A stretch of 64,000 bases of DNA from IMG/VR virus record IMGVR_UViG_3300041964_000148; one strand, 5' to 3'. The position numbers and the translations under genes were made by a program. The DNA is from a virus. Taxonomy: Duplodnaviria; Caudoviricetes. Positions within the stretch are counted from its first letter, which is position 1, and every line of letters begins with the position of its first letter. Below the pieces are notes generated by a model that was not told the origin of the DNA, did no database searches, and saw only the letters and a list, made by a program, of their open reading frames with translations. Below, piece after piece: positions 6,410 through 63,381 of this stretch.

Positions 6410-6433
6410 ATCACGGAGAACCGTGACATAGAA

Positions 6434-7855
6434 ATGCTCAATCCATATGCGATCGCCGAAGCCCAATCTACATCCATTCTCTTAGAGTCTGCACTTAAGG
6501 AGTATGCAGCCGATTGGCTCAAGAACACTGAGAGCGTGATGCGGGATGAAACCGGGAAGTTTGCCAAGAAGGCGGCTTCCGTGGGTCAAAGTGCGTCCCA
6601 GGCTAAAGAATCTATTGAAGAGGCAGTTAAGAACCCCCAGGAAGCGAAGCGGAAGGTAAACAGTGAGTTACTTAAACTCACGGCAAGGGGTTTGGATAAA
6701 CTTGTTCAGAAGTACCCAGAATTTACTGACCAACTCCTAGACAAGATGCTTGGGCTTGACGCTCAAGAGGCACGGGACAGGTTGGCAGATGAGTACGGAC
6801 GCATTAACCCAGGATTGCCCAACGCCATCAGACCAGACCCATTGCCCGTACCCCTGAAGGAGACCCTAGCAGACATCCTCAAGAAGATAGCAGCAGACAA
6901 GGGAAACCCCAAGGAGTTGGCTAAAGACCTCCAAAAAGCATTTGAGCTATTGGGGGAAAACTACAACGATTTAATTGACGACCTCAACAATGTGGAGAGT
7001 GAGTCAGAGGCGGTTAAGCTCCTAGGGAAGATTGCGGCTACTTCTATTCCTATTACTGCCTATCTTGCTATCGCCCTTACTCCTGAAGTTGCAATCGGAC
7101 TTCTACTTGGGGATAGTTTATCAACCATCCTTGTATCGACAGTAGCTAGCGAGGCTGTTAGTTTTGCTGCCAACAAGGGAATGGACAAGATGGATGTGAA
7201 CAACCCTTGGGTGAGAATAGGGGTTGAATTGGCAATCGGGATTGGGGTTGGAGGGGCTGTTAGTACTGGGGCAAAACAGCTAGAAAATGCCAAAACAGCA
7301 GAAAAAATTGGCGCATTTGCGGACAAGAAGGTTAAGTTACTTCGTCGCAAAGCCGAAGCGACATTTAAAAAGGTCAAATCCGGCGGCAAATCTTCTATGG
7401 AGATTCCAGATTTCCCTCCTATTCTTAAGCAGAAACCAAAAGGAATTCCTGATGACATCGAGTTTGACCAAACACCTTATGGCACAGGCTTGAGATTTGA
7501 GATAGAGGGCAATAAAGTATTACTAGGTCTTGGTGATGATGGGGTAGTAGGCTTCAAGATCAATGACAAGTTTGACATGGATGAATCTCTCGCCGACAAC
7601 GTAAAAAGACGGGCGGCTGTTAAGTTAACTAAGTTATTTAAGTCATCTGTTGCAGAGATGGAAGAAGGGAAGATTCTGTGGTGCAATATCCATGACAAAG
7701 ATGGAGTAAAAGCAGCAGATCGTAGATTTAAAGCTTATAAGCTTATGGGTTTTGGAGACAAAGTTGAAAACTCTGTATACGGTATAATTAAGGAAGGTAA
7801 ACTTGTACCTTACAAACCTTCTGCGGAGGATTTAAACAAACTACATGGTGACTAA
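6434..7855 (+). CDS. Leader-family paralog 3 with a unique C-terminal alpha/beta domain (candidate effector)
   Basis: KEYAADWL...RDETGKFA. The first ~185 aa are highly similar to 8073..10061; the C-terminal ~150 aa are unrelated. Confidence 0.65.
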   Translation: MLNPYAIAEAQSTSILLESALKEYAADWLKNTESVMRDETGKFAKKAASVGQSASQAKESIEEAVKNPQEAKRKVNSELLKLTARGLDKLVQKYPEFTDQLLDKMLGLDAQEARDRLADEYGRINPGLPNAIRPDPLPVPLKETLADILKKIAADKGNPKELAKDLQKAFELLGENYNDLIDDLNNVESESEAVKLLGKIAATSIPITAYLAIALTPEVAIGLLLGDSLSTILVSTVASEAVSFAANKGMDKMDVNNPWVRIGVELAIGIGVGGAVSTGAKQLENAKTAEKIGAFADKKVKLLRRKAEATFKKVKSGGKSSMEIPDFPPILKQKPKGIPDDIEFDQTPYGTGLRFEIEGNKVLLGLGDDGVVGFKINDKFDMDESLADNVKRRAAVKLTKLFKSSVAEMEEGKILWCNIHDKDGVKAADRRFKAYKLMGFGDKVENSVYGIIKEGKLVPYKPSAEDLNKLHGD

Positions 7856-8024
7856 AACAGATGCCTATTCTTTATCAGGAGAAGAGGAGGACTACTGGCT
7901 TGAAGCTGTAGTCAACAAGTCAGAAGAGGAAGTAGAATCATTAATCAACGCTCTCCCTCCTGACAAGCAGAAAGCGGTTAACGCACTAATAGCCGAAACA
8001 TTTTTTCCTAAAACAAAAGATTAA
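7845..8024 (+). CDS. 59-aa acidic protein overlapping the paralog 3 stop (candidate immunity protein; absent from the ORF track)
   Basis: ATG at 7845 to TAA at 8022-8024, MVTKTDAYSLSGEEEDYWLEAVVNKSEEEVESLINALPPDKQKAVNALIAETFFPKTKD. It fills the gap up to the terminator exactly. Confidence 0.65.
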   Translation: MVTKTDAYSLSGEEEDYWLEAVVNKSEEEVESLINALPPDKQKAVNALIAETFFPKTKD

Positions 8025-8087
8025 AATCTCCGCTTCAACAGCGATAATGCTAGTTGAAGCGGAGATTTTTTTATGCTTAATTTTTAT
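8023..8087 (+). repeat. Hairpin plus gene-start element, copy 1 (copy 2 at 11310-11372)
   Basis: AAAATCTCCGCTTCAAC...GTTGAAGCGGAGATTTT followed by ATGCTTAATTTTTAT. Confidence 0.85.
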
Positions 8088-10061: not shown

Positions 10062-10066
10062 ATACA

Positions 10067-10930: not shown

Positions 10931-11311
10931 ATGAATATCAAGCAGTCGCTGGTTCGTGCCAGCTTTTTTCTTGGCGTAATGAGCGCAATTGCACTCCGTA
11001 TCGGAGTGTGGCTTTTACGACGAAGGACAGATGCAACGATTGCAATCATCCAAACAAAGACCATCTGTGCCCTCTTGCTGGGCGGGATAGCCCTCTACTG
11101 GCATCTCGACACCCTTGGGGTGCGGGTGCAGTCGTGGTTCGATGTTACTTGGCTCCGCCTTCAGTGGTGGAACCAAATAGAGAACCTCCAATACGAAATT
11201 GGATGGAAGTCATTCCTAAGTTACTGGGACGGCTTCTCTACCGGAGCCGGATGGGGACTACTTCTCGGCGCAGGACTAATGTTTGTCCTGATGCGCCGCC
11301 AAAACACCTAA
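10931..11311 (+). CDS. Small Trp-rich membrane protein
   Basis: Three hydrophobic segments; TTGACT-17-CATTAT upstream (10874-10902). Confidence 0.55.
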   Translation: MNIKQSLVRASFFLGVMSAIALRIGVWLLRRRTDATIAIIQTKTICALLLGGIALYWHLDTLGVRVQSWFDVTWLRLQWWNQIENLQYEIGWKSFLSYWDGFSTGAGWGLLLGAGLMFVLMRRQNT

Positions 11312-11372
11312 AAACTCCGTTTCAACAGCGATAATACTGTTGAAACGGAGTTTTTTTATGCTTAATTTTTAT
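11310..11372 (+). repeat. Hairpin plus gene-start element, copy 2
   Basis: AAAAACTCCGTTTCAACAG...CTGTTGAAACGGAGTTTTT followed by ATGCTTAATTTTTAT, which here reaches a stop within a few codons. Confidence 0.85.
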
Positions 11373-11406
11373 CCGTTCCCTTAATCGCAATTAGTTAGAT
11401 ATATAA

Positions 11407-13179
11407 ATGCCCAATACAACCAACCCGATCGCACCCACCAACCCGACGCCCACCAATCCGACATCGACCAGTAGTACACCCGCGACAAACTCTAGTACAA
11501 CTGCGATCACACCCGTAAAACCGAAGGCACCCCCACCCCAAAAGCAACCTATTGAAACCCTTCCAACTAAGAAAGCGACTTTAACCAAGCAGGTTTTTGA
11601 CCCTAGATTTGGGGCAAGTTATGCTCCACTAGAGATCAGATTTCTAACCGGAGCCTGTGCAGATCAACTATTAGATTTAGGGTTTAATATCCAAGACTTT
11701 TCCATGTCCCAAGCCCAAAACTGGGAAAAAGGGAAAGGGCAAACAATTCAGGTAGGGCATAATTTTGATAACGTCTCACCGTGGACGTTTAACCTTAATT
11801 GGCAATATTGGGGCTTGTGGGAGGACGTTCATCAATTGGCAGCCCTCTGCCAACATATGGGAACGATTGACCCTAAATTATCTACACCACCCAAACTACA
11901 GTTTACCTTCGGCGAAGCCATAATTGACCCTGTTGTTTGCACCAACATAGATATTAAATTTGATGCCCCGCATCCAGGAAGTAAAGGGATGCGCCATGCA
12001 ACTGTGACGGCAACCTTTGAACTTGAAGCTGGGAAAGGGACAAAGCATCAGCTTTCTCCACCTTTAGCCCCGAATGCCCTAAGCGATCGCATCCGAACCC
12101 TGACTGAAACAGAGCGAGAGCGTCAAGGGCTAATCGGAGTTACCCGCACCTCACTAGCCCCTTGCCTGGGTAAGAAGGGAAGCGAGAATGTCGCAAAGCT
12201 GCTGAAGGACAACAAGCTTGGGGATGAGGCGACCTTGCAGGCATTAGATGCCAACACATTCGTCCAATTGGCAGTAGCGGGAACGATTCCTAAAGAAACC
12301 TTGGCTAAACCACAGTTCCAGGAGAAGCTTAAGCGTGATCTAGCGTTCCGTATGGCGAAAACTGAAAACGGAACAACTCCAGCCACCTCAGAGCAGCTTG
12401 CTCGCGCACTAGAAAGTGGCGATCCATTTGGTCTTCCCGAACAGTTCACGTCTACGCAACAGGACAGGCGCGTGGACGAGAAGGGAGTAGAAACGACTAA
12501 AGAAAACACCTTGTTTGGAAGGATATCAGGAGATTACCAAGCCGCTCTCACCGCCATCAAAGACCAAAAACTAGCTGCCAACGATGACGTATTTAATCCC
12601 GTAAAAAATCCCACAGCCCAAGGGCGACTTACCGCCGCAGCAGGATGTGGGTTGGACTTAAGGAATAACGGAGCGCCTAAGATCGCTAAAACTGAAGGGA
12701 AAGATGCCGTATTAATTTCAGGAATTAACCAGGCGATCGCAGGCACAAAGTCTGATGAAGAGTTGAAAAAGTTGTTCAACCTGCCCGAAAACACCCCAGA
12801 TACCGTACTTCGGAAGATTAAAAATGGGGTACCTTATCAATCTAAGGATGAGTTCCTCGCCAGGTCATCGTATAACCAAATGGGCATTACGGGTCATTCG
12901 CTTTGGAGCAGTTTTGACGCGCATGAGTCGGCACAGCTCACTGAGGTCAACAAGTTTTTAACTCAAGAGAATCTTAGTGATGACGACCTAAAAAAAAGAT
13001 TTGGGGTAGGGGATGATATTGCCAAAAAACTCCGCAATAATGGCAAACCGTTTGCTTCTAAAGAGGAGTTTTTGAAGGCGTCATCCCCTAATTCAACTGG
13101 AATAGATGGGAAGGGGAACCAGGTATGGCTCGACTTTGAACGGAATGTTGATAAAGTCAAGACGGCAGAACAGCCCTAG
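11407..13179 (+). CDS. Putative tail tube-initiator/baseplate protein with two C-terminal helix-hairpin-helix-like repeats
   Basis: Pro/Thr-rich leader. Beta-rich domain ending PPKLQFTFGE...VVCTNIDIKFD...ATVTATFE, resembling contractile-tail tube-initiator folds. Repeats ending NGVPYQSKDEFL and NGKPFASKEEFL. Confidence 0.5.
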   Translation: MPNTTNPIAPTNPTPTNPTSTSSTPATNSSTTAITPVKPKAPPPQKQPIETLPTKKATLTKQVFDPRFGASYAPLEIRFLTGACADQLLDLGFNIQDFSMSQAQNWEKGKGQTIQVGHNFDNVSPWTFNLNWQYWGLWEDVHQLAALCQHMGTIDPKLSTPPKLQFTFGEAIIDPVVCTNIDIKFDAPHPGSKGMRHATVTATFELEAGKGTKHQLSPPLAPNALSDRIRTLTETERERQGLIGVTRTSLAPCLGKKGSENVAKLLKDNKLGDEATLQALDANTFVQLAVAGTIPKETLAKPQFQEKLKRDLAFRMAKTENGTTPATSEQLARALESGDPFGLPEQFTSTQQDRRVDEKGVETTKENTLFGRISGDYQAALTAIKDQKLAANDDVFNPVKNPTAQGRLTAAAGCGLDLRNNGAPKIAKTEGKDAVLISGINQAIAGTKSDEELKKLFNLPENTPDTVLRKIKNGVPYQSKDEFLARSSYNQMGITGHSLWSSFDAHESAQLTEVNKFLTQENLSDDDLKKRFGVGDDIAKKLRNNGKPFASKEEFLKASSPNSTGIDGKGNQVWLDFERNVDKVKTAEQP

Positions 13180-13646
13180 GCACACAAGCTACCAAACATT
13201 TGGTTCCACATTTCGCCCATATCCAATTTAGACACAGAACTAACCTGAGGAAGAGGCACAGGAGTTGGTTGTTTTAGACTGGCAACAATTGCAAAGGGAG
13301 CTTCTTCCCGCAAAATATCTTCCACGGCTTCCCGAAGGAAGTCGGACATAGTTGTCCCCTGGAGGAAGCATACGAGCTTAAACCTTTCCTTTGTTTCCTT
13401 ATCAATCAAAAACCGAATATATCCATCGGCTTTTTGCAGATTATTCTGGTAGTATTTCGTGCGAACACCTGCCCCAGCCGTCAACTTTGCCGGAGGCTTC
13501 TTTGCTATTTTACTAAGGCTCACTCCTTCGAGAGAAGCAATAACAATTCCCTTGAGCAAGTCGGTCATCTTCCCGTTGGGGACTAGATCTTTGAACCTTT
13601 GCTTGAGATCTTCGGGAATCCGGATTCGGATATCATCGTCTAGCAT
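13176..13646 (-). CDS. Tandem ribbon-helix-helix DNA-binding protein
   Basis: IRIRIPEDLKQRFK...MTDLL and IRFLIDKETKERFK...TMSDFLREAV. Confidence 0.7.
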   Translation of the reverse strand: MLDDDIRIRIPEDLKQRFKDLVPNGKMTDLLKGIVIASLEGVSLSKIAKKPPAKLTAGAGVRTKYYQNNLQKADGYIRFLIDKETKERFKLVCFLQGTTMSDFLREAVEDILREEAPFAIVASLKQPTPVPLPQVSSVSKLDMGEMWNQMFGSLCA

Positions 13647-13905
13647 TGTCGTGAGCTTGGTGTGTTACATATGTTGTTATATTGTAACCTTTCAAAGTGT
13701 GTGTGAACACAATTGCTCATCATCATCTTCATGTTGTCGTATATCGTAGGCGATCGCATAGCTGAAGCCGATTAATGACAAAATCCAAAAGAAACAAACC
13801 CCTTTGGGTATATGCCGGGGTTTTTTGCTTGATCACGGTTCTCCGTGACGAAGGTCTACACGTCATCCTTTGTTACAATGAGGTTATATAGCACAAAGCA
13901 AAGCC

Positions 13906-15132
13906 ATGTCACAACCGAAAGAAGGTGATGCTGTACTAGGAGGAACACCCCCTTTGCAGCCCAACTCAACAAGCCTTGTCCTGGGCGGATTCTATGCCGT
14001 GCAGCGAAAAATCAAGGCGCAGGAAGAAGACTTAACCGAAGGCGATATCAAGACAGTGATCGCACATAAGTGCCGCAACTATGATGAGCTTCTGGTAAAA
14101 ATCAAATTTTGGCAGGAGTATTACGAGTTTGAGGGATTAGACCTGGACGAGTCATGCTTAACCGAAAAGGAAGTAGCGATCGCAATTGCCAATGGGGCAA
14201 GGAAATCGTTCTACCTTAATGTTGAATTCCTGACCCATGATCGGGAGTTGGTCAAAAAACAAGAACAGCGACGGGTTAAGAAGTTAAAGGACTTCACATT
14301 CTCCCGTTACTGTCGCCGAGACTTGATCCAAAAAGCAGTCCTTGAACTTGCTGACAAAAACATAAGCAGAGGAGAGGTGCGCCAAAAGGTGACGGAAAGT
14401 CATTGCTCTTGGCAATCCCATTATTGGATGATAAATGATACGCGCTCAGTTGTATTTGATTGGAAAGGCACTGATGATTTACAGAAGGTTATCTCGACAA
14501 GCCTAGGAAAAATTTCCCGAAAGTACGGATTGCCAATTAGCTTAGTTTTTGGCTACAGCCAACTACTAAGGGACTTGGCAACAATTGATACCTCTCGGAC
14601 ACTTTTGAGGAGATTTACTTTGCTAGATTCTCTGTTGTGTTTAACAACAACTATCCTCTACCCCTCCGACTTAGAGCCATTTGACCCAAGGGTATTAAAT
14701 ATACCAAGGTCATTGCTTTGGAAAAGTTGGATTTTGAATGAAAAGGGACACGAGGTGCAAGTGTCTTTGGATGTAAGAATTCCTCTGAATAGTGTGTATT
14801 TTGGTGGGGCTATACCTAGCGTAATCATTTTTGAGGTGTTCAAAAAAGCGATGGCATATGCGATCGCACTCCACGCTGCCCACCGAGACACGGCTACCTA
14901 CAGTCTTAAAAATCTGGAGCAGAAACTAGGTATCTGGAACCTGCACAAGGCGAAGGAACCCCTAGCTGCACAGGTAGCAGCCGTCCTGCCAGCATTGCGA
15001 GACATTATTGATCTGATAATCGCTGATTTCAAGAAGCAGGTTGAGGATGGCGACGACTCGCCAGCAATCCCTGTTGATCAAATTGAGAGAGTCGAACAAG
15101 ACTTGGGGTTTGTTAAACTAACATTAATCTAA
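13906..15132 (+). CDS. Hypothetical protein with an N-terminal DAVLGG motif
   Basis: 408-aa ORF with an AAAGCAAAGCC leader; starts MSQPKEGDAVLGG...LVLGG. Confidence 0.7.
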   Translation: MSQPKEGDAVLGGTPPLQPNSTSLVLGGFYAVQRKIKAQEEDLTEGDIKTVIAHKCRNYDELLVKIKFWQEYYEFEGLDLDESCLTEKEVAIAIANGARKSFYLNVEFLTHDRELVKKQEQRRVKKLKDFTFSRYCRRDLIQKAVLELADKNISRGEVRQKVTESHCSWQSHYWMINDTRSVVFDWKGTDDLQKVISTSLGKISRKYGLPISLVFGYSQLLRDLATIDTSRTLLRRFTLLDSLLCLTTTILYPSDLEPFDPRVLNIPRSLLWKSWILNEKGHEVQVSLDVRIPLNSVYFGGAIPSVIIFEVFKKAMAYAIALHAAHRDTATYSLKNLEQKLGIWNLHKAKEPLAAQVAAVLPALRDIIDLIIADFKKQVEDGDDSPAIPVDQIERVEQDLGFVKLTLI

Positions 15133-16275: not shown

Positions 16276-16581
16276 GGTTTTTGCTTATGTAGTGAATACT
16301 GGTGTGATTTGTTATCACATCTGTATTGTAGCACAATGTAAAAAGTATTACGGAAGCAATAAAAAAACCTTTATCACGGAGAACCGTGACAAGGTTGTTT
16401 CCCATCATCACCATCATCAAGACGGCAGTCCTTGTGGCTATAACCGACTATGCGATCGTCCACAAGTATCTGCAAGCACTCAGAAATCGGCGAAACCACT
16501 ATCCGTCTCCGGCAAAGCAAGCAACGGTTCCCTGGTGGGCGAGTTAGAAATTCATCCGAGAATGGCTGATTATTAAATCGA

Positions 16582-17492: not shown

Positions 17493-17558
17493 GTTTAGCT
17501 CAGGTTTAGATCATGTTTAGGCTGTATCTAGCCTAAGTTTAGGCTAGATACAGCCTAA
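17493..17558. repeat. 11-bp-period iteron-like array (GTTTAG core)
   Basis: Cores at 17493, 17504, 17515, 17526, 17537 and 17548. Related arrays at 17167-17183, 18514-18563 and 19154-19192. Confidence 0.75.
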
Positions 17559-17998
17559 GCCACAGCAGTGGCAAACGCGATCGCCATTCGTTTGCAATCT
17601 TCGAGTGTCGCTGCCTTAAAACCAATAGGGAGGTCGAGTTCCGTTTGCTGTCGAAAAGACTGATTTTCGTCTGCTTCGGTCAAAGCCATGCAATCACCTT
17701 CAGCAACAACAGCGCCAATACCGAATCCACAGTATGCCCTGTGACTCCAACCATACCACTTCTGCTCTTTCTCACAGAAGCCTATCGAGCAGACTGTTTT
17801 ACCAGGAAGACATTCAGGTTTAATTCCCAAGGTATAGAGAAAGATAGCCGTATTGATGTCGCCAATATATTCCCCTGACTGGGCATATACTGAATTCAAA
17901 ATCACTGGTTCATTACCTTCGACGGTAGTCAACTCTTTCCTAAGTTCAAACCCTCTTCGGTCTTTAAAAACATGAAGCGTTTCTTTTTGTATTAGCAT
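17555..17998 (-). CDS. Conserved phage hypothetical protein
   Basis: CSIGF...QKWYGWSHRA..GFGIG motif, recognised from phage proteins of unknown function. Confidence 0.65.
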   Translation of the reverse strand: MLIQKETLHVFKDRRGFELRKELTTVEGNEPVILNSVYAQSGEYIGDINTAIFLYTLGIKPECLPGKTVCSIGFCEKEQKWYGWSHRAYCGFGIGAVVAEGDCMALTEADENQSFRQQTELDLPIGFKAATLEDCKRMAIAFATAVA

Positions 17999-24963: not shown

Positions 24964-25691
24964 TTCTCTACGGTGTGCTTCTCTTAGTTTTTCAAAGTCC
25001 ATTGCTCGAACCCAGGTGGTTTGGGATAAAGGCGTCTCTTTTCGGCATCTAATTTTGATATTTGCCAGCATTCCGCAAACATTAAATACCTATTTCTTTC
25101 CTTTTATTGCTTAATCCCATTGTAACTTAATAGTAATGTATATGCAAGTATATTGAGGTAATCTGACACAAAATACAATCTCGCTACACATCCAAAACAA
25201 AAGCCACTGACATAAAGTCAATGGCTTTTCATTTAAGCTAGCTACCTATTACCTATTATCCCCCACTTCGTACTCATCACGGTTCTCCGTGATGAAGTCC
25301 AAAACAAGTTTCGTACTAGCAAAAACACTCATTACAGAACCCATTGTTGCGAAATACACTCAGAAAGGTGGAGTTTCCTCTGCCCAGTGATAGGCAAAAT
25401 AAGAGAAATCTATCTTTGTTGAAACATGGATCATTGCCCAGAATTCAAAAAAGTAATTTCGTTAGTTGGGAAGATGGCACAGACTCTCAGGTTATATGCC
25501 GATGGGCATGAGGAGCCAGGAGTAGCTCAACGAATGCTAAGAGAATACGATCGCACAATTGAGCAGTTAAGACATCCGCAAGAACATGATCGTGCTAGTC
25601 CAGTAGGACGCGATCGCTGTTAGGGCTTCCGTATTTTCTCAGTGATAGGCGAGAATAGGGAAAACTATTCGCCTCAAAATGCTCGACCGCT

Positions 25692-28264: not shown

Positions 28265-29116
28265 TTGATGCCTCGTTCCTACCGAGATATCGTAGCCTAC
28301 GGCGATTTTAGTTTGCCGATGCTCACAGAAGGTCTATTTCTCCGAATAGGGAAAGACCATAAAGTAGAAGGAATTTTATTGGGTAGTGCTTCATTGAGGG
28401 CTGCTACAGACTTTGAGGCAGCAGGAACCGTAAAGGCTCACGAGACTTCAACCAATCATCCCTTGGCTACACCCTCAACGCCAGGATTAATGGCTGCCAC
28501 CGACAAAGCTAAACTCAACGGCTTACCCTTATCAGCCGACGTACTCACTAAAACGGGAAACTTGTCCGATGTTTCCGATAAACCTACTGCGAGGTCTAAC
28601 TTGGGACTAGGTAGTGCGGCGATCGCCAACGCAACCGAATTTGAACCGCGTGGTATTACGGCAGCTCACGCAGCAGGTTCTGGTCCCGGTTCACACTTGC
28701 CAAGCGGAGGAATTTCTAACAGCGAAATAGCAGGAAATGCGGCGATCGCAGACTCTAAAATCAACTTTGCGATACCGGCTCGAATTTCCGCAACTTACGC
28801 AACCGGATGGAACACCCCAGCAGGCAATGACGGGGTATCTTTTCGGAAATTTGCCAACAAAATGGTTCAGCTTTCCGGCGTAGCGGCAAAGAGTACTTCT
28901 CCCAACAACAATGATTTGATCTGCACCCTTCCCGCTATCTGTCATCCCGACAGCATAGTTCGCTTCGTAATTTACGGCTCTAGTTCCCTTGGTATGTTGG
29001 TTCCGGCATTTTTAACAGTAGGGACAAATGGCGAAGTAAGACTTCTGCTAGGAGGAACGACACCCGCTCAATTCATAGCAATTCCAAACAACTCCATATT
29101 CTTCGCGGCGCCTTGA
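28265..29116 (+). CDS. Tail fibre-like protein
   Basis: GLMAATDKAKLNG, NLSDV.DK.TAR.NLGLGSAA, and a tip segment with V.LSG...ICTLP....P. Confidence 0.75.
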   Translation: MMPRSYRDIVAYGDFSLPMLTEGLFLRIGKDHKVEGILLGSASLRAATDFEAAGTVKAHETSTNHPLATPSTPGLMAATDKAKLNGLPLSADVLTKTGNLSDVSDKPTARSNLGLGSAAIANATEFEPRGITAAHAAGSGPGSHLPSGGISNSEIAGNAAIADSKINFAIPARISATYATGWNTPAGNDGVSFRKFANKMVQLSGVAAKSTSPNNNDLICTLPAICHPDSIVRFVIYGSSSLGMLVPAFLTVGTNGEVRLLLGGTTPAQFIAIPNNSIFFAAP

Positions 29117-29184
29117 TTCTTCGTCACGGAGAACCGTGATAGACAGTTCGTGCATCGTAACACCTCAAGGTAAAATGCTATGTG

Positions 29185-31467
29185 TTATCTCACGGGAACT
29201 CCCGTAAAAGAAATACCACCCATGCCTGGTTCTCTCTGATAGATTGCCGCGCTTACTAGCGAAAAACAAAGTGAATGGAACAGGTGATCAGGAGCACCTG
29301 GGGGTTCCAACCAAGTACCATCCGGCAATCTATCTGAACTCAATAAGTGTACAAATAAATTTGCATTATCCTTTGGGTTGTATGTAGTCCCAGCCGGAAG
29401 ATGCATTAGTCTTCGATAAATTTTGTCTCGCACCGCATCCAGCCCATAGGTTCTATCTAATACATAAACCGGAGCCAGATTTTCGCTGCCTTTAACTCGG
29501 CTACTATTTTTGGTACTTTTAATTTTCCTTAGGGTTCTGCGCCATTGATCACCCTTTAGCTTCATCTGATCAAATAAGTAAACCTGGAAGCGGTGTCCAT
29601 GCTTAACCTGCCCTGGTTGCCAATACTCATCCTCTGTCTCAAAAACAATAGATCCAGGTAGTTTTGACTGGAAGAAACGATCCACCTCCTTGATATCTAA
29701 GCTTCTTCCTGAAGCGGGGAAAAGCTTATATTCTGCACAATAAGTGCTTCCTGGTAAAATCCTATCTCCCTTCTCACTAAAAGCAGCCACCTTCCATCCA
29801 TATCTTTGTAGGTAAGGTTCAAAGATGGGGATAGCTTTGGGATTAGTAACCTTAGCTGTACAAAACTGTGAATACAAAGGGCGCTGCCCTGGCAAATGCT
29901 TCAAGGCAAAGTCAACAGCATTGTTCCACTCCGGCTCAGAATCCATACCAATGACATCAATATTAAATTTCTGAGCAAGGTATTCCAATTCATCAAAATC
30001 ACCAATCTGCCGCCAATCTACAACCTCCATTCGCCCATCCAGCCATTTAAAGTCTGGGTCTTGTGCATCAGAGAACCAGTACTTCGCTATAGTGAGCCAG
30101 TGAGAATATTTTCCAACATCTAACCCAGCGACAACAATGTCAGCTTCCCGTTCAAGAGGCACAGGTAAGCCCACACACGCCTGGAGTTGGGAGAGGGCAA
30201 TCTTTCCTCCACCAAGGCTGATTGCCTTGCCCAGCATCTCTTGGATTCCAAGGGCGGGGCGCTTTGTAGTCCACATAAACCTGATGCGTTCTACTGGATC
30301 AAACGTCCAACTAGCCAGCTTTGGTAGGTGCATGGCGACAGCTTCTCGCACCGCCTCTTGGTTCTCCAAAGTATGGCGATTAAGATCCTTCAGTGTCATT
30401 CCTGTGTTGGTACAGACGAACTCCCCTGCATCTAACGCTTCCTTTTCCAGTTCAATCTCACAATCTTGGCATCCAATGTATGCCGTTGCGATCGCCTCAT
30501 CTTTAGCGTGATCTTGTAACTGCCAATCCTCTACTTCTGGTGGATTATCCGAGTAATGGAACCACCTGAGAGGTCGTCCCATACGGTCTACATACCGTAT
30601 CTCAGTGATTCCATCCTCGGTCACTTCCACAGCCTTAAGAAAATTGCCGAAAGCATCTAGGAATTGGGTGCAGTTGCAGGTAGGACAGGTAACCTGCCAC
30701 TGGAAGATGTATTTAGCCTTCCGCACCTCGGTATCAACTAGCCCCCCTTCCATCGCGGGCGTACTACCTGCTCGTATCACTTTGGTTGCCCACCGAGATT
30801 GCCCGAATCGGGGAGCCAAGGCGTCTAGAATTCCGTTCCCGCATAAACCAAATTCATCCACGCAGGCAATACGAGTGGTAAACGAACGCAGTCCAGAGGC
30901 AGCCTGCTCGTCATCTTTGGAGGCTTCAACTTTGGAGTAGAAGAGTTCCAGCGGGACACCTGCCACAGTAATAGACTGCTTGGCGTCAATATCTTGGCGC
31001 TTGTAGATTCGTTGACTCTCTCTAGATAAGGCTTTGAGGGGTTCGCACTTATCAAATGCCACCTGGATGCGCTCACCTGCCATCTTGGTCATCTTGCGTT
31101 GTGCTTCAAATCCGAGGGCAATAGGCGATCGGAGGTAGGACAGAGAGAAGGCGCAGAGGGCGATCAAGATCTCACTGTAGCCGCATTGTGCTTGCTTCGA
31201 TATTATTAAGCGCTCTAGCCAAGGATTCGCGAAAACGAGCGCAAACTGATAATAAAAAGCCTCATCCCAACTTAATTTTTCCCCTGAATGGGTTCGGTAA
31301 TTCTTGCTAACCCAAGCAATAAACAGCTCTCCCCCCTTCTCGTACCACTCTTGAACGGCTAAGTCGCGCTTGGATGAGGTTTCTTCAATAAACTTGTCAC
31401 TCTCACTTTTATTACTCGTCTTGGCATTTTGAGCAACTTTGGTAACTGAACTAACTTTGTAAGCCAA
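29185..31467 (-). CDS. Terminase large subunit, lambda GpA family
   Basis: Walker A-like KQAQCGYSE, Walker B CVDE, GSTP, CPTC/CQDC Zn motifs, nuclease GLDVG and DHLFH. Confidence 0.85.
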   Translation of the reverse strand: MAYKVSSVTKVAQNAKTSNKSESDKFIEETSSKRDLAVQEWYEKGGELFIAWVSKNYRTHSGEKLSWDEAFYYQFALVFANPWLERLIISKQAQCGYSEILIALCAFSLSYLRSPIALGFEAQRKMTKMAGERIQVAFDKCEPLKALSRESQRIYKRQDIDAKQSITVAGVPLELFYSKVEASKDDEQAASGLRSFTTRIACVDEFGLCGNGILDALAPRFGQSRWATKVIRAGSTPAMEGGLVDTEVRKAKYIFQWQVTCPTCNCTQFLDAFGNFLKAVEVTEDGITEIRYVDRMGRPLRWFHYSDNPPEVEDWQLQDHAKDEAIATAYIGCQDCEIELEKEALDAGEFVCTNTGMTLKDLNRHTLENQEAVREAVAMHLPKLASWTFDPVERIRFMWTTKRPALGIQEMLGKAISLGGGKIALSQLQACVGLPVPLEREADIVVAGLDVGKYSHWLTIAKYWFSDAQDPDFKWLDGRMEVVDWRQIGDFDELEYLAQKFNIDVIGMDSEPEWNNAVDFALKHLPGQRPLYSQFCTAKVTNPKAIPIFEPYLQRYGWKVAAFSEKGDRILPGSTYCAEYKLFPASGRSLDIKEVDRFFQSKLPGSIVFETEDEYWQPGQVKHGHRFQVYLFDQMKLKGDQWRRTLRKIKSTKNSSRVKGSENLAPVYVLDRTYGLDAVRDKIYRRLMHLPAGTTYNPKDNANLFVHLLSSDRLPDGTWLEPPGAPDHLFHSLCFSLVSAAIYQREPGMGGISFTGVPVR

Positions 31468-33443: not shown

Positions 33444-33468
33444 GCTAATTACAACAGTTTTATTGCAC

Positions 33469-33882: not shown

Positions 33883-33931
33883 GGTTCTTACCTATAGGGA
33901 CTCAATCCCCAGTGTACACTCGATCCCACTC

Positions 33932-34336: not shown

Positions 34337-34473
34337 GATTTTGCTCAATGACTATGCTGTCATGTTACTACATATGGCAGAGAGGACAGGAAGCGATCGC
34401 CTCCAACAAAAACCCCTAGATCCTATGGATCTAGGGGTTTTTCTGTATATCGCGGGATCTGTCAATCAGTCAT

Positions 34474-35278: not shown

Positions 35279-35283
35279 ATGTT

Positions 35284-35321: not shown

Positions 35322-35494
35322 TTAGATTTTTGGAATATTGAACAAACTGTGTAAACGACAAACTGAACCAGGGTCCAAGTTTATTTTCTCGCTTGTCTGA
35401 CAAATGTCTATTGCAATTTCCTTATCCCCAAATTAGCGCAACTTTTCCTAGATTGCAAGTAAAAATCCTTTTGTTACAATGCCAAAATTAATAA

Positions 35495-35830: not shown

Positions 35831-36876
35831 TAGTTTAGTGCCGTGTAATACACGGTTTGTAGTATTTCAAAGTAACTTTTTTTGTGGCGCTGCCATTCAA
35901 AGTAGAGATGCCCTTCATCAATAGAGTCTTCATCGCTGTTTTTTCCTACCAAGTCTTCTGGCTCTTGTTCTAAGGCTTTTAGGTAAGACCGTAAAACGCC
36001 GCCAACTGCTACAGTCTTGGTATTATGTAACTGCCGACTTAATTCTAAAAAGAACTCGCGGTTATATATCATGTCAGACTCTTTCACCTGATATTTTAAT
36101 ATCTCAGGGACAATCTTAATTGGATTGTGTTTCTTATGAATTGCTTTAACATGACACCTTGGATAATAATCCAACCGAGCGCATTGTTTCCAAAGCTCAA
36201 CCCACTTCTCTTGAGAAAGGTAGCTAGCCCCAAAGTAACTAGGAGGAACCATGAGTAGGCAATGGAAATGAGGATGTGCATTACCATCTTTGCCATGCGT
36301 CACTTCTACAGATTTAATCCAACCATCAGCAGGATAAATCTTAAGCTGGGTCAGACGCTGGAATGCTTGGTTCATTGACTTGAGAGTTTCCCTTAGTTCG
36401 GTAACAGGGCAATTCTTAATTGTTAGAGTTAAGAACAGCCAGCGGTGCTTAGGAAAGTCTTTTACTACCCTCGGAATGATTTTATAAGCTTTAGCCTTCC
36501 ACATCATTGAGCGCCGCCATTGGCAAACACAACAATGTCTGACTCTACAAAATCTAGCTGATGACAGTTTTAGTTTGAGAACTCCTTCTTCAAGATCTGG
36601 TGTTAATTTAAAATCTAACAACTCAGAGCAAAAGTGAATCCTCTTTGCATAATCGTCAAATTCAGTTCCTCTATAATGGGTTGCAATTTTATCGCTGTTA
36701 GCTCGATGTTCGTCCCATACTTTATCTCTTTCTGATAGATCAGATAAACGTGCTGCTTCTGTGGGCTGGACAGATTCGCCTGTTAGAGGTAAATTGAGGA
36801 TGTAGCTCTGGTCTGTTTCATGCCCAGACACAAAAAAGCCCCCCTGGTATCTAATTGGTTGTGTGGTAACTCCCAA
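35830..36876 (-). CDS. rep: Rolling-circle replication initiator, Rep_1 (pC194 type); start uncertain
   Basis: FCRVRHCCVCQWRRS, FLTLT (motif 1), HPHFHCLL (HUH), EILKYQVK (catalytic Tyr). Confidence 0.92.
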   Translation of the reverse strand: MGVTTQPIRYQGGFFVSGHETDQSYILNLPLTGESVQPTEAARLSDLSERDKVWDEHRANSDKIATHYRGTEFDDYAKRIHFCSELLDFKLTPDLEEGVLKLKLSSARFCRVRHCCVCQWRRSMMWKAKAYKIIPRVVKDFPKHRWLFLTLTIKNCPVTELRETLKSMNQAFQRLTQLKIYPADGWIKSVEVTHGKDGNAHPHFHCLLMVPPSYFGASYLSQEKWVELWKQCARLDYYPRCHVKAIHKKHNPIKIVPEILKYQVKESDMIYNREFFLELSRQLHNTKTVAVGGVLRSYLKALEQEPEDLVGKNSDEDSIDEGHLYFEWQRHKKSYFEILQTVYYTALN

Positions 36877-36892
36877 TCTACCAGGGGGTTTT
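36835..36892 (-). promoter_or_regulatory. Hairpin over the 5' region of rep (terminator or attenuator)
   Basis: CCCCCTGGTA...TACCAGGGGG arms flanked by A and T runs. Confidence 0.5.
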
Positions 36893-36940
36893 AATTTTTG
36901 TCAATTGACAAAGACGTTAAAACTATTAAATTTGAGCATT

Positions 36941-37273
36941 TCAGTCATTGTAATGAAATCTACATTGCAAAAGCTCAATTTTGCCCTTGTCAACTTTATA
37001 CACAAATCGATTAGCTTCATCAATTTTTCTTGACCATAAACCAGAACCTTCATGTCTTAAAGCTTCTGGCTTACCTATTCCTTCAAAAGGGTTTTTCAAT
37101 GTGCTTTCAATCAAGTCCAAAATTTTTTTTAAAGTTTTAGAGTCTTGACGTGACCAGTATTGGCACTGTTCTAAAAACTTTGGAGTTAAAACAAGCTCAA
37201 AAGTTGTTTTTTCTTTAGCTAGTTGAGTAGAGGTAGAAGCTTCTTTTTGAGATTCATTCTTCTTCTTCTTCAA
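36941..37273 (-). CDS. yoeB: Txe/YoeB family toxin
   Basis: YW...D.KTLKKI..LI......PFEGIGKPEAL.....GLWSRKID..NR.VY.V......LLQCRFHY. Confidence 0.92.
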   Translation of the reverse strand: MKKKKNESQKEASTSTQLAKEKTTFELVLTPKFLEQCQYWSRQDSKTLKKILDLIESTLKNPFEGIGKPEALRHEGSGLWSRKIDEANRFVYKVDKGKIELLQCRFHYND

Positions 37274-38597
37274 AGCCTAGCTCCTCACGCAATTCATCTA
37301 ATGTCATTGCCCGTCCTTTTCCTTCTTCTATTTCTTGCAATGCAGACTTTAAGATAATTGCATTCTTTTCTGAAAGATTAAAAAGATAATCTGTTTCATC
37401 AATGCCACCTATATCTTCTCTGTCTTTATCTCTTGCAGCAGCGCCGAACACAGAATAAGCAAACCGATGAGCCAATCTTACATAGTCGTTGTGTGATTTG
37501 ATTGTGTTTAATAGTAAGGTATTAAACGCATCCTCTTCAAAAGGCTCATTTAGTAAAAGTTCACTGTTCTTAATTTCTCCAGAAGCTAGCTCTGCCTCAA
37601 CTTTAAAAAGAACTCCATTTTTTTTCTCTTCTGGACTTAATTCAAGTTCGGCTTTTTGAAGCTTTTTTTCGATGATAGCTTGAGCCTTAAGAACAAACTC
37701 TTGACGCATTTTTATTGGGCAATAAGCCCAGTATTGTTCAACAACCTCCAAAAGCAATTCATAACCTCGTACAGTTAATGAATAAGCTTTTGCAATCTCA
37801 TCTATAAAGCGTATAGCGTCAGAAGCAGTGGGATTTGTAAATTGTAAAACTTTATTACTGCTTTGATTAATTTGATTACCTAATTGCTTGAACAAATAAG
37901 AAGCAATTTTTACTTTGCTATCCAAAATTAAGAGGATGGCATCTACCTCTAGCTTGCTTCTGCCTTTTGCTGCTGCTAGTTCAGCTTTAAAATCATGCTG
38001 TGCTCCTTCTGAACATTCAAAAATGAGGCAGCTTTCCAAATCAACAAATACAACGTCTTCAATGCCTTTCACACGTTGTTCCTCTATAAACAGACAGTAA
38101 ATTGGTAGCTTAGTATGCGCTCTTGCCCGATATGCACTTCTATATCCTTGCACAGCCTTCTCTAATGCGATCGAAAGCCACCCGATCGCCACACCACCAA
38201 CTGCCCCAACAACCAGCAACTGCAACCAGTCTGGAGCCAAAAGCAGCAGCTCCAGTCCTGCCAGCGAGAACATCTTTGTTTCGCTAGGTTTTGCAGTTCT
38301 TTTATATTCATTTTCGTCTGTATCCCATACAGTGAGCGAGTTGCACTGATGCTGACGCATCAGAGAACTCCCTAAGTATTCGAGGTCATCATCACTTACT
38401 AACTGTTCTGCAATGGTCTTCAGAAACAACCAAAACCATTTTGGTTCCTCATCCTCGGCGTAATGGTAAGGGGACAGGGAACGGAAGAAGTCAAGTGCAA
38501 CCTGCAATCCTTCTTCGTCGCCTGACCAGAATGATTTGATATGGTTTTCATCAATCTGAACAGACTTGATCAACTTAACGGCGATGGATTTTGTCAT
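37254..38597 (-). CDS. Large protein ending in a YefM/Axe-like toxin-binding tail
   Basis: C-terminal DETDYLF.LS..NA..L..A..EIEEGK....TLDEL, overlapping the yoeB start. Internal TM segment. Start reassigned to ATG 38597. Confidence 0.6.
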   Translation of the reverse strand: MTKSIAVKLIKSVQIDENHIKSFWSGDEEGLQVALDFFRSLSPYHYAEDEEPKWFWLFLKTIAEQLVSDDDLEYLGSSLMRQHQCNSLTVWDTDENEYKRTAKPSETKMFSLAGLELLLLAPDWLQLLVVGAVGGVAIGWLSIALEKAVQGYRSAYRARAHTKLPIYCLFIEEQRVKGIEDVVFVDLESCLIFECSEGAQHDFKAELAAAKGRSKLEVDAILLILDSKVKIASYLFKQLGNQINQSSNKVLQFTNPTASDAIRFIDEIAKAYSLTVRGYELLLEVVEQYWAYCPIKMRQEFVLKAQAIIEKKLQKAELELSPEEKKNGVLFKVEAELASGEIKNSELLLNEPFEEDAFNTLLLNTIKSHNDYVRLAHRFAYSVFGAAARDKDREDIGGIDETDYLFNLSEKNAIILKSALQEIEEGKGRAMTLDELREELGFEEEEE

Positions 38598-38653
38598 GAT
38601 TTTGCTTTGCGTGTACATATTACTATGTTATCACATTCAATCCACCGAGATTA

Positions 38654-41436: not shown

Positions 41437-41988
41437 TTATAGGGCTTTTGGACGGGGGAACTTTGAACCCAAGAAACTCCTCATCATTGCTTGATTGCGT
41501 TTATCCCTGCTTTTGACCGATTCAGGTTCAGAAGGTGTGTCCGCCTCAAGCGCTTCCTCCATCACGGAGAACCGTGATGGAGGAATACTTAAGACAAAAG
41601 GGAAAGGGAGAGGTGACCTAGGAGGACTTAGCCTAAAAGAATGATTAGTATCGGCAATTTTGTTAATTGATCCCCCCTGCTCGGCTAAGGCAGTCAGCGC
41701 CCGCATTATGTTTCCCTGCGCGGCTATGCCAGCCATAGCCCGCCTTAGGGTTCCCTGTTCGACTATTTCAACCAACATTGCCCTTACAAACGATTGTGAT
41801 TCCCCAAGCGCCAAGGAGATTGAGGAAACTGTTTTGTTGAAATCGTAGCTGATTGAAACGGGTTCTGGAACAAACCTGCTAGGTGCGATCGCCCACCAAA
41901 CTCCATTGATCTTCTGCGGTGTATCCCAACCGTTGTTCACACACCAATCAAGGACTAACCTATCTAGTGCGTTTAGTTCTGATTCCAT
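41437..41988 (-). CDS. Hypothetical protein
   Basis: Intact ORF with a downstream terminator; contains one copy of the 16-bp element. Confidence 0.5.
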   Translation of the reverse strand: MESELNALDRLVLDWCVNNGWDTPQKINGVWWAIAPSRFVPEPVSISYDFNKTVSSISLALGESQSFVRAMLVEIVEQGTLRRAMAGIAAQGNIMRALTALAEQGGSINKIADTNHSFRLSPPRSPLPFPFVLSIPPSRFSVMEEALEADTPSEPESVKSRDKRNQAMMRSFLGSKFPRPKAL

Positions 41989-42321: not shown

Positions 42322-42591
42322 CTACTTCTTCTTGGGTCTACCACGGAGAACCGTGACGGACGAATCCAGCTTCTTTTTCTCAGGGAGCTGCTGAATATCA
42401 AAAATAAGCGATCGCTCTTTTAATTTCTCATTGCCCTTAAATATTTGGTTTAACAGCACTTTATTAACCTCCCAGCCAACCCCATAGTGCATCCCATCAC
42501 GAATAACGTGTTTAAGATCCTCCCATCCCAATGAGTGCATTCGATCTATTTCGGCTTTGCCTGAAACAGGGATAATGACAATATATTTCAT
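42322..42591 (-). CDS. Small hypothetical protein
   Basis: ATG-started ORF ending in an AT-hook-like RGRPKK; contains a variant 16-bp element. Confidence 0.45.
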   Translation of the reverse strand: MKYIVIIPVSGKAEIDRMHSLGWEDLKHVIRDGMHYGVGWEVNKVLLNQIFKGNEKLKERSLIFDIQQLPEKKKLDSSVTVLRGRPKKK

Positions 42592-44882: not shown

Positions 44883-46124
44883 ATGACCACTACACGAAAG
44901 AAAGACGCTTTCCCCACAGGGACAGCTTTGCCTGTGTTTTATCGGACATATAGCCGTGGGGGAAAGGAGTCTTGGTGGGACGTTTGTATTCGTTGCGTGG
45001 AGGGACTTGTTACGCTATCGGCAGGACACCTAAAAAAAGAAGAGCGATCGCTTCTTCTTAATTACGCACGAGAAATCAAAGCCCTGCCTTCCGGTCGCTG
45101 GCTTTGGGTTGGCGGCAAGCCTTGGGTAGAAAACCCTAAGAATTTCTCTGGGGCATATAACTGCACGAGCATCAATGTTAAGGCTTATGAGGATCAGTCT
45201 CCTTGGGCAGCCTTTGGCTGGCTTATGGAATTAGGGATGATGGGATGCGGCACCGGTGCCGTACTAGAACCAAAATACATTGACACTCTCCCACCTATTT
45301 GTAATATCCTCCAGACTAATATCCTGGGAGAGCCGGGGGAAGTTCACCCAAATGAGCGGCTAGAGGATACGGAATTTACTGTAAACCGAAACACGCTTTA
45401 TATCCTGGTGGGGGATTCGCGGGAAGCGTGGGTGGCAGCATACCAAATTATGTTAGAAGCGGCTTCTAACCCTAACCTGGGGCGGGAGCTGTTTGTCAAC
45501 ATCTATTTGGGCAACGTGCGCCCCTATGGTGAACAGCTCCAAGGTTTTGGAGGGGTCGCTAATCCAGCCAAGTTGGGTTGGATGTTTGGCGCGATCGCCG
45601 ACGTTACTAATCAAGCGGTTGGGCGACAAATGAATTCTTTAGAATGCTGTATGGCGATCGATATTGCAGCAGAGAATACTGTTGCCGGAAATGTTCGACG
45701 TTCTGCTGGGATGCGGCAAGGGAAGTACGACGATCCTAATTTTGTTGATGCCAAACTGGGGTTATATCTCCAAGATGAGGCTGGGGATTGGTATTTACCT
45801 GATGCTAGAAAGTCGGTTTTGAGAATTGCTAATCACACCCGCGTCTTCCACCACAAACCTACCTTAGAAGAGATCCAGGAAGCTGTTGCCAAGCAGTATT
45901 TCTCTGGGGAAGGGGCAATTATGTGGGCGGGAGAGGCAGTATATCGGTGCAATCGCGACTTAATTAGTGAAGGCGATCGCTCGACATTCCTGTATCTCTA
46001 TAATTTGGGCATAGAACGCGCCGAGGAGTTTTTAGCTGTTGCTTATCTTCGCTACCACGGTGTACCGTGTTCCGACGAGGAGCTGGAGCATCGAATGGAA
46101 AGATATGGGACAAATCCGTGTGGT
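44883..46124 (+). CDS. nrdJ: Class II (B12-dependent) ribonucleotide reductase, exon 1
   Basis: VFYRTYSR, PSGRWLWVGG, AYNC, GCGTG, VAGNVRRSA; ends at GTNPCG. Confidence 0.95.
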
Positions 46125-51644: not shown

Positions 51645-51767
51645 GTTACGTATCTATGTGTGGATACTACAATTGTAACATTTCAGTAATACACAAAAAC
51701 GTATCACGGTTCTCCGTGACGAGCGATATTTCAACATCCCCCCCTCAAGGGGGGATGTTAAGTGGAG

Positions 51768-62530: not shown

Positions 62531-63213
62531 AGTTGGCTCTCTGTTGTTTGTATTTGGTTATCAACTTGCACTGGTATATCTAGACCGAGAAACTTGTTGT
62601 GCCCGCGAACGACCGCTCTGTTGTTCCGGTGATGTAATGCTGATGCTCCATCTAGGGCGATCGCTTCTTCATGTACCCCAGGTTCGCCCTTCCTGGGAGA
62701 AGTGGTGTAACCCTTGTGCTGGGCTAAACCGTACATGGAAAACTGAGGCCAGGACGCAAGGCGAGTGATTAGTTCGTCGCGCCATTCTTTGGCAATAATC
62801 GACGCAGCAGCGATCGCACAAATTTTGGTATCCCCTTTTATCACTGCCGATTGCCGACGCTTACCTATTCCTGGGATGAGGTTGCGTCCATCAACAAAGA
62901 TTTGATCAGCATTGATATTAAGCCCTTCAACCGCCCGCTTCATTGCCAAGAGGGATGCTCGGCAAATATCGCCTTCGTTAATTTCCCTGACTGAGCCTAC
63001 GCCAATCTTGTAACGCCCTATCTCCTTGAGTAAGGGGACAAGAACAGAGCGTTGTTTTGGGGAACGTTGTTTTGAGTCCCTCCCCTCGTACTTGCCCCAT
63101 TCCAGTACCTTTTCCAACTCCTGAAGATGTTCGGGAAGCGGACTATAGGCACAAGCTACGACAGGACCAAAGGCGGGCCCTAAGCCGACTTCATCTACGC
63201 CAATTAAAATCAT
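62503..63213 (-). CDS. rnhB: Ribonuclease HII
   Basis: GVDEVG.G, DSK, VDG, KGD....IAAASIIAK..RD, HKGY. Confidence 0.92.
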   Translation of the reverse strand: MILIGVDEVGLGPAFGPVVACAYSPLPEHLQELEKVLEWGKYEGRDSKQRSPKQRSVLVPLLKEIGRYKIGVGSVREINEGDICRASLLAMKRAVEGLNINADQIFVDGRNLIPGIGKRRQSAVIKGDTKICAIAAASIIAKEWRDELITRLASWPQFSMYGLAQHKGYTTSPRKGEPGVHEEAIALDGASALHHRNNRAVVRGHNKFLGLDIPVQVDNQIQTTESQLCLQLQQVL

Positions 63214-63228
63214 CAGAACACCTCCGAT

Positions 63229-63288
63229 GCGGGAAACTCAGTGTCCTTAGATCTGAGAGGAACGCACGGTAGCGGTTTTAACCGCCTA
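63229..63288 (+). mobile_element. IS200/IS605 left-end-like remnant
   Basis: GGGAAACTCAG...CTGAGAGGAAC hairpin followed by the palindrome GCGGTTTTAACCGC. Confidence 0.45.
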
Positions 63289-63381
63289 CAGTCTTTAGAA
63301 TCCATATCCATAACCATCCTTTTGGTGAATTTGCTGACAATATTTATATTTTCTCCGTCACGGTTCTCCGTGATGAATGTA

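Follow-up and report, generated by a model that had tools for sequence, protein, structure and literature searches.

Genomic setting and the dyad family

We analysed a stretch of 64,000 nucleotides from the IMG/VR virus record IMGVR_UViG_3300041964_000148 (Duplodnaviria; Caudoviricetes), hereafter the window, which contains a family of dispersed 16-bp dyads of the form TCACGG-AGAA-CCGTGA. The replicon is cyanophage-like and measures ~242 kb, as judged from identical proteins on metagenome contigs of 220-245 kb, and the window holds the end of a giant tape-measure protein (gene length 22 kb), a GpA-type large terminase, a GH19 lysin, Tad6, MazG, an RNA ligase, a split ribonucleotide reductase (RNR) with a LAGLIDADG insert, a plasmid-type Rep_1/YoeB module and TnpB elements. 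HIP1 (GCGATCGC), a cyanobacterial signature, occurs 62 times in these 64 kb. By appearance the samples come from communities of soil crusts or of filamentous cyanobacteria. Megablast and tblastn gave no match in phage and plasmid collections.

Eight exact copies of the dyad and one with a single mismatch lie in the window (Table 1), where 0.02 are expected from 100 dinucleotide shuffles; five are on the plus strand and four on the minus strand. An earlier note on this DNA had listed these nine copies in both orientations, and every coordinate was correct. It was also right that the spacer is conserved, that the arms extend to 14 bp at one site, through flanking sequence, and that two copies sit inside coding sequences. 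When the search was relaxed to 3 mismatches no further copy of TCACGG-AGAA-CCGTGA appeared in the window; the family is all-or-none there, without degraded copies. Five more copies were confirmed beyond the window, in a stretch assembled to 87 kb (-5.6 to +81.6 kb), at window coordinates -1318, 67861, 73209, 77228 and 80734, which makes 14 confirmed copies, all with an identical 4-nt spacer. The copy at 73209 has one mismatch, at its last base, that at -1318 falls in the middle of the tape-measure gene and is in frame, and at 77228, between two convergent genes, the dyad forms the tip of a bidirectional terminator that is perfect.

The earlier note had allowed that the motif might be a common host repeat unrelated to the phage. 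We found the exact 16-mer in 0 of 401 cyanobacterial genomes sampled across the phylum, while IMG/VR returned single, chance-level matches (32 contigs) and GTDB likewise single matches (at least 120 rows), none of them cyanobacterial among the matches listed. The dyad family is thus genuine and particular to this lineage of phages.

Table 1. Dyad copies and associated features in the 64-kb window
Feature	Position	Strand	Context
Dyad copy 1, exact	6411..6426	+	intergenic; 2 nt past upstream stop (contig L194 call), 7 nt before ATG at 6434
RHH (ribbon-helix-helix) protein, RelB/ParG-like, 156 aa	13176..13646	-	PF04221, E=5e-5; PF09274, E=3e-3
Dyad copy 2, exact	13833..13848	-	divergent region between RHH gene 13176-13646(-) and 13906-15132(+)
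Dyad copy 3, exact	16374..16389	+	between two minus-strand genes
Dyad copy 4, exact	25277..25292	-	intergenic; 48 nt from strong bidirectional terminator 25199-25229
Dyad copy 5, exact	29124..29139	+	convergent-gene gap; 7 nt past stop of 28265-29116(+), 45 nt past terminase stop
Possible relic of another dyad family, 5-4-5, spacer AACT (low confidence)	29192..29205		last terminase codons
Dyad copy 6, 14-bp arms	41554..41585 (core 41562-41577)	+	inside open reading frame (ORF) 41437-41988(-), codons 138-143
Dyad copy 7, one mismatch (first base C)	42341..42356	+	last 11 codons of ORF 42322-42591(-)
Lone dyad, arms CACGG / CCGTG, spacer TGTA	46056..46069		inside RNR coding sequence
Dyad copy 8, exact	51704..51719	-	between two minus-strand genes; after GC hairpin, before T-run; terminator-like score
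Dyad copy 9, exact	63358..63373	-	27 nt past stop of full-length TnpB gene (63401-64654, minus strand)

Architecture and placement of the sites

Alignment of the 14 copies showed that the invariant 16-bp core is framed on each side by four partly conserved, mirrored positions (Y-T-C-R on the left, Y-G-R-R on the right), with random sequence further out. The information profile is thus that of a symmetric 24-bp dyad decaying outward, in which 10 bp, or one helical turn, separates the centres of the two half-site core hexamers. Two of the copies agree at 26 of 28 bp, flanks included. The first flanking pair was A..C in seven copies, G..T in four, A..T in three and G..C in none, so that Watson-Crick pairing was present in 3 of 14, below what independent assortment would give, and no Watson-Crick covariation was detected outside the 16-bp core across the 14 copies. 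This deficit fits half-site recognition rather than selection for a longer stem. The idea that G-U wobble pairs lengthen an RNA stem on the transcribed strand was likewise rejected, as four sites fit it and five do not.

The orientation of the dyad is not tied to transcription. Read in the sense of the local mRNA, the spacer is AGAA at 5-6 sites and UUCU at 5, and both the asymmetric spacer and the G..T flank pair are independent of the transcribed strand. An RNA recognised by its loop needs a fixed sense, and one recognised by its stem alone lets the loop drift; neither pattern is seen here.

Copies are concentrated outside genes: coding sequence makes up 89% of the genome, yet 9 of 13 copies fall between genes (p=1e-6), and 8 of 13 lie no more than 60 nt from the 3' end of a gene (p=7e-5). 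Within intergenic DNA taken by itself, 3' ends were not favoured (p=0.2). Strand switches were not enriched (3 of 9 copies against ~30% of junctions). The four intragenic copies outside the tape-measure gene all fall within the last 45 codons, some copies provide the stop codon of their host gene, and we found no internal repeats in the tape-measure gene that could be the source of in-gene copies. Several copies neighbour terminators; copy 2 is 13 nt from a bidirectional terminator (13785-13820), and copy 3, with its flanks and a T-run, has a terminator-like score on the minus strand. A U-tract or T-run is absent at most dyads, 12 of the 14 strong terminators in the window lack a dyad, and intrinsic terminators were rejected as a class for these sites because stem and U-tract occur together at only 3-4 of 14 copies (16374, 51704, 77228 and, weakly, 73209).

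The sites are also evenly spaced. Between 23 consecutive copies, 14 of them at confirmed positions, the mean interval was 6.4 kb with a coefficient of variation (CV) of 0.585 against ~0.96 for random placement (P=0.004), and the largest gap in the same set, 14.1 kb, was smaller than expected (P=0.013). For the confirmed stretch alone a hand calculation gave a CV of ~0.57. The second-largest gap (12.4 kb, copies 5 to 6) holds the Rep_1/YoeB module (34368-38623), which has no dyad inside; with the module taken out, it would shrink to 8.2 kb.

Close strains

Most metagenome contigs that matched were 100% identical to the window, so strain comparison drew on a population 96-98% identical to it, from five Joint Genome Institute samples, in which six sites could be compared. 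All six were kept in the variant strains with the core intact, and no presence/absence polymorphism was seen at any of them. Orientation was unchanged at copy 1 in four variant-strain contigs and at copy 2 in contigs L230 and L232. At two of the six sites, copies 6 and 7, the spacer was inverted in three independent variant contigs. The flip is the sole difference at copy 6, where 60 nt on each side are identical (0 of 120 flank positions mismatched), and at copy 7 the mismatched outer base did not move with the flip, so the inverted segment is at most 14 bp and lies within the arms.

The flips change the encoded proteins from SRFSV to SRRTV (FS to RT) and from TVLR to TENR (VL to EN). As these replacements are radical, what is conserved is the DNA, and neither the peptide nor a loop in a given RNA sense. 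Hairpin formation would be the simplest mechanism for the flips, by analogy with chloroplast DNA, where the loop between inverted repeats undergoes short inversions attributed to hairpin formation (Kelchner & Wendel 1996, as cited in PMC12371153). Such a mechanism would also explain the ~50:50 orientation of the copies. Across the sites the strain comparisons remained collinear, and none of them showed a rearrangement between copies; the proposal of the earlier note that the dyads are directional recombination cores is therefore not borne out, as only the 4-bp spacer inverts.

Some variation between strains concerned the surrounding genome. The module comprising Rep_1, YoeB and a 454-aa gene is missing from variants L234 and L236, in which position 38624 is joined directly to ~34367, a polymorphism of 34368-38623 that is consistent with a rolling-circle plasmid module inserted in the window strain. 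In L234 (3750-3841, compared with window 33450-33973) the small genes that follow DUF6575 stand in a different order and an extra gene of 230 aa is present; the junction of this rearrangement holds a degenerate dyad with two mismatches and the spacer TTCA, 17 nt past the DUF6575 stop.

Sister phages and distant relatives

The closest relatives are short contigs, among which a sister phage contig (terminase 76% identical) was rebuilt to its full 20.9 kb. It carries a dyad of its own, TCCCAG-GATA-CTGGGA, in four exact copies, two per orientation and about one per 5 kb, together with one two-mismatch variant and one CCACGG-AGAT-CCGTGG. The arms of the sister and window dyads differ by two compensatory pairs, and the sister spacer is also invariant. 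Three of the four sister copies abut a stop codon, and three of four lie 4-10 nt before a canonical terminator. The sister dyads were not multi-copy in any IMG/VR contig.

One sister copy is positionally orthologous to a window-phage site. The two occupy the same alignment columns, 24 and 20 nt upstream of a start codon, the genes downstream (684 and 741 aa) align at their 5' ends at 75% identity, and a homologous bidirectional terminator follows the dyad in both phages. Each phage nevertheless has its own 16-mer at this place, with 8 of 16 positions different, and the loop sense is opposite in the sister. The earlier note had raised the possibility that the motif is not conserved in relatives. 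This holds for the sequence itself, which is kept only in near-identical strains, but not for the 6-4-6 design, the density and at least one position, which are kept in the sister phage. The conserved bidirectional terminator (L229 880-915; L227 3230-3275) separates the start of the 684/741-aa gene from a gene upstream that runs in the same direction, which suggests that the 684/741-aa gene is controlled by attenuation or read-through.

A second relative (L041; terminase 80% identical, from the same sample as the window phage) has ACCACGG-AACT-CCGTGGT one base past its terminase stop. At the same gene end the window phage has a weak 5-4-5 dyad in the last terminase codons, whose spacer AACT is that of the L041 dyad, and its own copy 45 nt downstream. 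Judging from these sequences, dyad families may turn over at a favoured place at the terminase 3' end.

Phages with a terminase 36-44% identical (two of them whole, 188 kb and 149 kb) contain neither this dyad nor an over-represented equivalent. An abundant motif of another kind, AATCAATCAATT with variants, was seen in the distant relative G005 (IMG/VR UViG 3300005673_000003, 148.7 kb, direct terminal repeats; terminase 36%), with 71 copies of the 12-mer.

Interpretation

These data point to a DNA-level element that is constrained as a double strand, indifferent to orientation, lineage-specific, conserved in position and distributed over the chromosome. We suggest, with a probability of roughly 0.45, that the dyads are genome-wide sites for a lineage-specific, phage-encoded dimeric DNA-binding protein; its binding and effect we infer from the sites, whose lineage specificity, conserved positions and spacer flips were observed directly. 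The candidate protein would be a dimer or a dimer of dimers reading two 10-bp half-sites (YTCR-TCACGG) around a fixed 4-bp spacer. Protein and sites would co-evolve, giving each phage lineage its own version, and sites would be placed where coding allows, in intergenic DNA, at gene 3' ends and even within the 22-kb tape-measure gene, with the result of one site per ~6 kb across the whole 242-kb genome. The role would be genome-wide rather than promoter-specific, and might be silencing or roadblocking, partition, or compaction by a protein that spreads or slides, as KorB does on the OB sites of RK2. Spacer flips would reflect hairpin-mediated template switching and would be neutral for a double-stranded site. 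As the 16-mer is absent from the 401 cyanobacterial genomes, the protein would be encoded by the phage and the site would not belong to a host regulon.

Several points weigh against this proposal. The ParB, repressor or recombinase gene that the earlier note suggested looking for did not emerge, and no binding protein was found: Pfam searches of ~78 of the 80 window ORFs of at least 60 aa gave no ParB, integrase, recombinase, Y1 transposase or recognisable repressor, and the Pfam tables for the flanking parts of the 87-kb stretch contained no ParB, repressor or recombinase. The RHH protein at 13176..13646 is the only DNA-binding candidate that adjoins a site in the window, and a link between it and the dyad is speculative. 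Additionally, a symmetric dimer leaves the invariance of an asymmetric 4-bp spacer unexplained, and a switch of ~38 sites from one sister lineage to the other would ask a great deal of point mutation by itself. The enrichment at stop codons and terminators would also fit an RNA role or a history of insertion. Purifying selection on the core is weakly shown, with 0 changes against ~2.4 expected by our own estimate from the strain comparison, and the spacing statistic rests partly on unconfirmed positions (14 of 23 confirmed).

The alternatives differ in what they make of these same observations. The dyad might be a self-propagating or homogenised mini-palindrome, a tiny element of 16-24 bp resembling repetitive extragenic palindromes (REPs) or small dispersed repeats (SDRs), which is spread by copy-paste or gene conversion, through a hairpin-specific enzyme of phage or host or through template switching, so that each lineage has its own family and copies persist only where they are harmless. 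We consider this unlikely, although several observations speak for it: copies are identical down to the asymmetric spacer and occur in both orientations, one pair sharing its flanks as well (26 of 28 bp), different families reach similar density in sister lineages, a possible relic family lies beside a current copy at the terminase 3' end, copies sit in intergenic DNA or last codons and sometimes supply the stop codon, and the absence of degraded copies is consistent with a young family. Spacer flips outpace point substitution, which indicates that hairpin-type DNA transactions occur at the sites. Yet the same aligned position is held by two different families in sister phages, the six sites compared between strains lack presence/absence polymorphism, and one copy lies in frame in the middle of the tape-measure gene even though 16 bp is not a multiple of three. 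Spacing is even rather than clustered or nested, target duplications were not seen, the dyad occurs in 0 of 401 cyanobacterial genomes, and no Y1/HUH transposase was found save the plasmid-type Rep_1, a module without which variants keep their dyads. The invariance of the spacer, the joint change of ~38 sites, the flips and the possible relic nonetheless keep this explanation alive. A related idea, to which we would give long odds, is that the dyads are rewritten in place by an active lineage-specific enzyme, such as a hairpin- or palindrome-specific nuclease/ligase or one of HUH type. Positions would then be fixed while the 16-bp sequence is homogenised over the ~38 sites and swapped wholesale between sisters, and the flips would be a by-product. 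If true, it would describe a new self-maintaining genome mark or a new ultra-small selfish element.

A role in RNA, where a 6-bp stem capped by a tetraloop would act at the ends or junctions of transcripts as terminator tip, 3'-end stabiliser, processing signal or dock for a lineage-specific RNA-binding protein (boxB/N-like or coat-protein-operator-like), is decidedly unlikely. It would account for the nearness of 8 of 13 copies to gene 3' ends, the terminator-like copies 3 and 8, the copy that tips the bidirectional terminator at 77228, the sister dyads at stop codons and just before terminators (three of four in each case) and the compensatory arm changes between lineages. It is contradicted by an invariant loop whose mRNA sense is divided almost evenly between AGAA and UUCU, which flips between strains and which is opposite at the orthologous sister site. 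The U-tract is missing at most copies, neither Watson-Crick nor G-U covariation that follows the transcribed strand is seen in the flank pairs, one copy lies in the middle of the tape-measure gene, most strong terminators in the window (12 of 14) do without a dyad, and Rfam gave no match. Even spacing, the hairpin that either strand can offer, and flips that point to hairpins forming in single-stranded DNA would suit signals for replication (priming or primosome assembly), or sites of packaging or site-specific recombination. We regard these roles as highly improbable, because 6-bp arms are short for stable extrusion, strand or polarity bias is absent, rearrangement between copies was not seen in any strain comparison, and a cos-type terminase of the GpA family needs one site only. 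The packaging half of the suggestion in the earlier note of genome-organising or packaging sites has little support.

If the dyads are indeed protein-binding sites, such a system could keep related phages orthogonal where they are found together in a sample, and the sister-phage pair offers a natural specificity swap for finding the protein and testing its function. Genome-wide exact dyads in large phages have been known since 2015 (Cluster O, below) and are apparently still unexplained. What is new here is that sites are fixed between strains while their asymmetric centre flips, that in a sister phage the same position carries a version particular to that phage, and that even spacing continues through a 22-kb gene. 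Together these point to fast-evolving, phage-specific protein-DNA recognition across the chromosome, which may serve silencing, segregation or compaction.

Comparison with known systems

KorB of the IncP plasmid RK2 is a ParB-family protein that binds OB, 12 identical 13-bp palindromes over 60 kb, and is used for global silencing and partition. The resemblance lies in identical palindromes about every 5 kb, in or far from promoters, with a tolerated asymmetric position at the centre; the difference is that no ParB/KorB homologue was found in the 87 kb of the window phage examined. Of the idea in the earlier note that the dyads are parS-like partition sites, a DNA-level role of the KorB kind is the part that fits best. 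Strict parS fails, and the note was right that the canonical site does not match: only a central CACG-like element resembles the TGTTNCACGTGAAACA-type consensus, the arms and the asymmetric 4-bp spacer differ, no ParBc match was found in the scanned window ORFs or the flank Pfam tables (87 kb), and the sites are dispersed evenly and unclustered.

The stoperators of Cluster A mycobacteriophages and the dispersed C1 operators of phage P1 number ~20-35 per genome, some inside genes; related phages differ in the sequence of these sites, which evolves together with the repressor. The window phage resembles them in copy number and lineage specificity, and no repressor was found in the 87 kb examined. 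Stoperators and C1 operators are asymmetric, and stoperators are oriented with transcription, whereas the dyad is random in orientation and flips. Of the stoperator suggestion in the earlier note, roadblock sites without polarity remain a fit; strict membership fails on the dyad form of the element, on an orientation that does not follow transcription and on the flips between strains.

The closest match in kind is found in Cluster O mycobacteriophages, which contain more than 30 invariant 17-bp dyads, TGTTCGG-NNN-CCGAACA, with a biased 3-bp spacer and in both orientations (Cresawn et al. 2015, PMC4351075). One third of these lie in coding DNA, and the authors, who also discuss stoperators, predicted binding by dimeric proteins (PMC4351075). 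Both systems have dozens of copies, in both orientations, whose inverted arms are invariant and whose short asymmetric spacer is strongly biased; in both, copies are intergenic and intragenic, are not tied to the direction of transcription, do not take part in rearrangements and have no known binder or function. They differ in design (7-3-7 there, 6-4-6 here), sequence and host phylum. In density, Cluster O reaches ~1 copy per 2 kb, with the copies gathered towards one end of the genome, against an even ~1 per 6 kb in the window phage; the spacer is biased in Cluster O and fully invariant here. Spacer flips and lineage-specific replacement at an orthologous position, which we found here, were not reported for Cluster O. 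The likeness is thus one of kind and not of sequence homology.

REP/REPIN elements and the small dispersed repeats of Nostoc (PMC3116915, PMC8266576) are also short palindromes, mostly extragenic, in both orientations and often beside terminators, and very small mobile repeats have been reported in cyanobacteria (Elhai et al. 2008, as cited in PMC3116915). The dyads differ from these in that copies are exact rather than a decaying family, positions are conserved between strains, a conserved 5' tetranucleotide foot is lacking, no REP-associated tyrosine transposase (RAYT) was found and the host-phylum genomes contain none. A REP/RAYT identity was rejected, given that the scanned window ORFs had no Y1_Tnp and that the 16-mer was absent from the 401 cyanobacterial genomes. 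The chloroplast minute inversions, as far as the citing paper describes them, are alike in that a 4-nt loop between short inverted repeats inverts recurrently with flanks unchanged; they account for the mechanism of the flips only, and not for the existence, copy number or specificity of the sites.

Other identities were tried and set aside. Rfam 15 gave 0 RNA matches in the window, and tRNA was likewise rejected. The core includes GAAC, which would recall a Dnd phosphorothioate target, but the sister dyad has no GAAC/GTTC and we take the match as coincidence. A target for the LAGLIDADG or another nuclease was rejected on logic, as ~38 self-sites would be lethal.

Other features of the genome

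Copy 9 lies at or beside the right end of a TnpB insertion sequence (IS), 145 nt upstream of an RNase HII gene. This IS605-type element (63213-64700) encodes a 417-aa TnpB ~70% identical to TnpBs of Leptolyngbya and Nostoc, has a small RHH gene in place of TnpA, and abuts copy 9 with its right end. In other TnpB elements the omega-RNA guide corresponds to the DNA just beyond the right end; if the same applied here, copy 9 would be the guide of this TnpB. An origin of the dyad as an IS605 end hairpin was rejected, because the IS beside copy 9 has its own, unrelated left- and right-end hairpins and the dyad is missing from an IS of another phage (L198) that is 91% identical.

The lone dyad inside the RNR coding sequence has ~0.06 occurrences expected by chance, and its kinship with the family is uncertain. 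A perfect 38-bp palindrome at 35284-35321 is the exact end point of three independent Logan contigs; these ends are an assembly break caused by the palindrome and not a genome end.

A homologue of Tad6, a type I Thoeris inhibitor, is encoded at 17555-17998 on the minus strand (E=1e-42). A DNA-modification cluster at ~64.9-80 kb contains at least three C5 DNA methylases, a DpdA homologue (7-deazaguanine DNA transglycosylase family), a DUF5131 protein and a T5orf172/MUG113 protein, and on this gene content the phage DNA is probably heavily modified. Finally, variants L230, L231 and L232 differ from the window by a 135-bp tandem duplication in the tape-measure gene (window 1555-1689), and by a 1.86-kb insertion with three ORFs at window 11372-11439, between 10931-11311 and 11407-13179.

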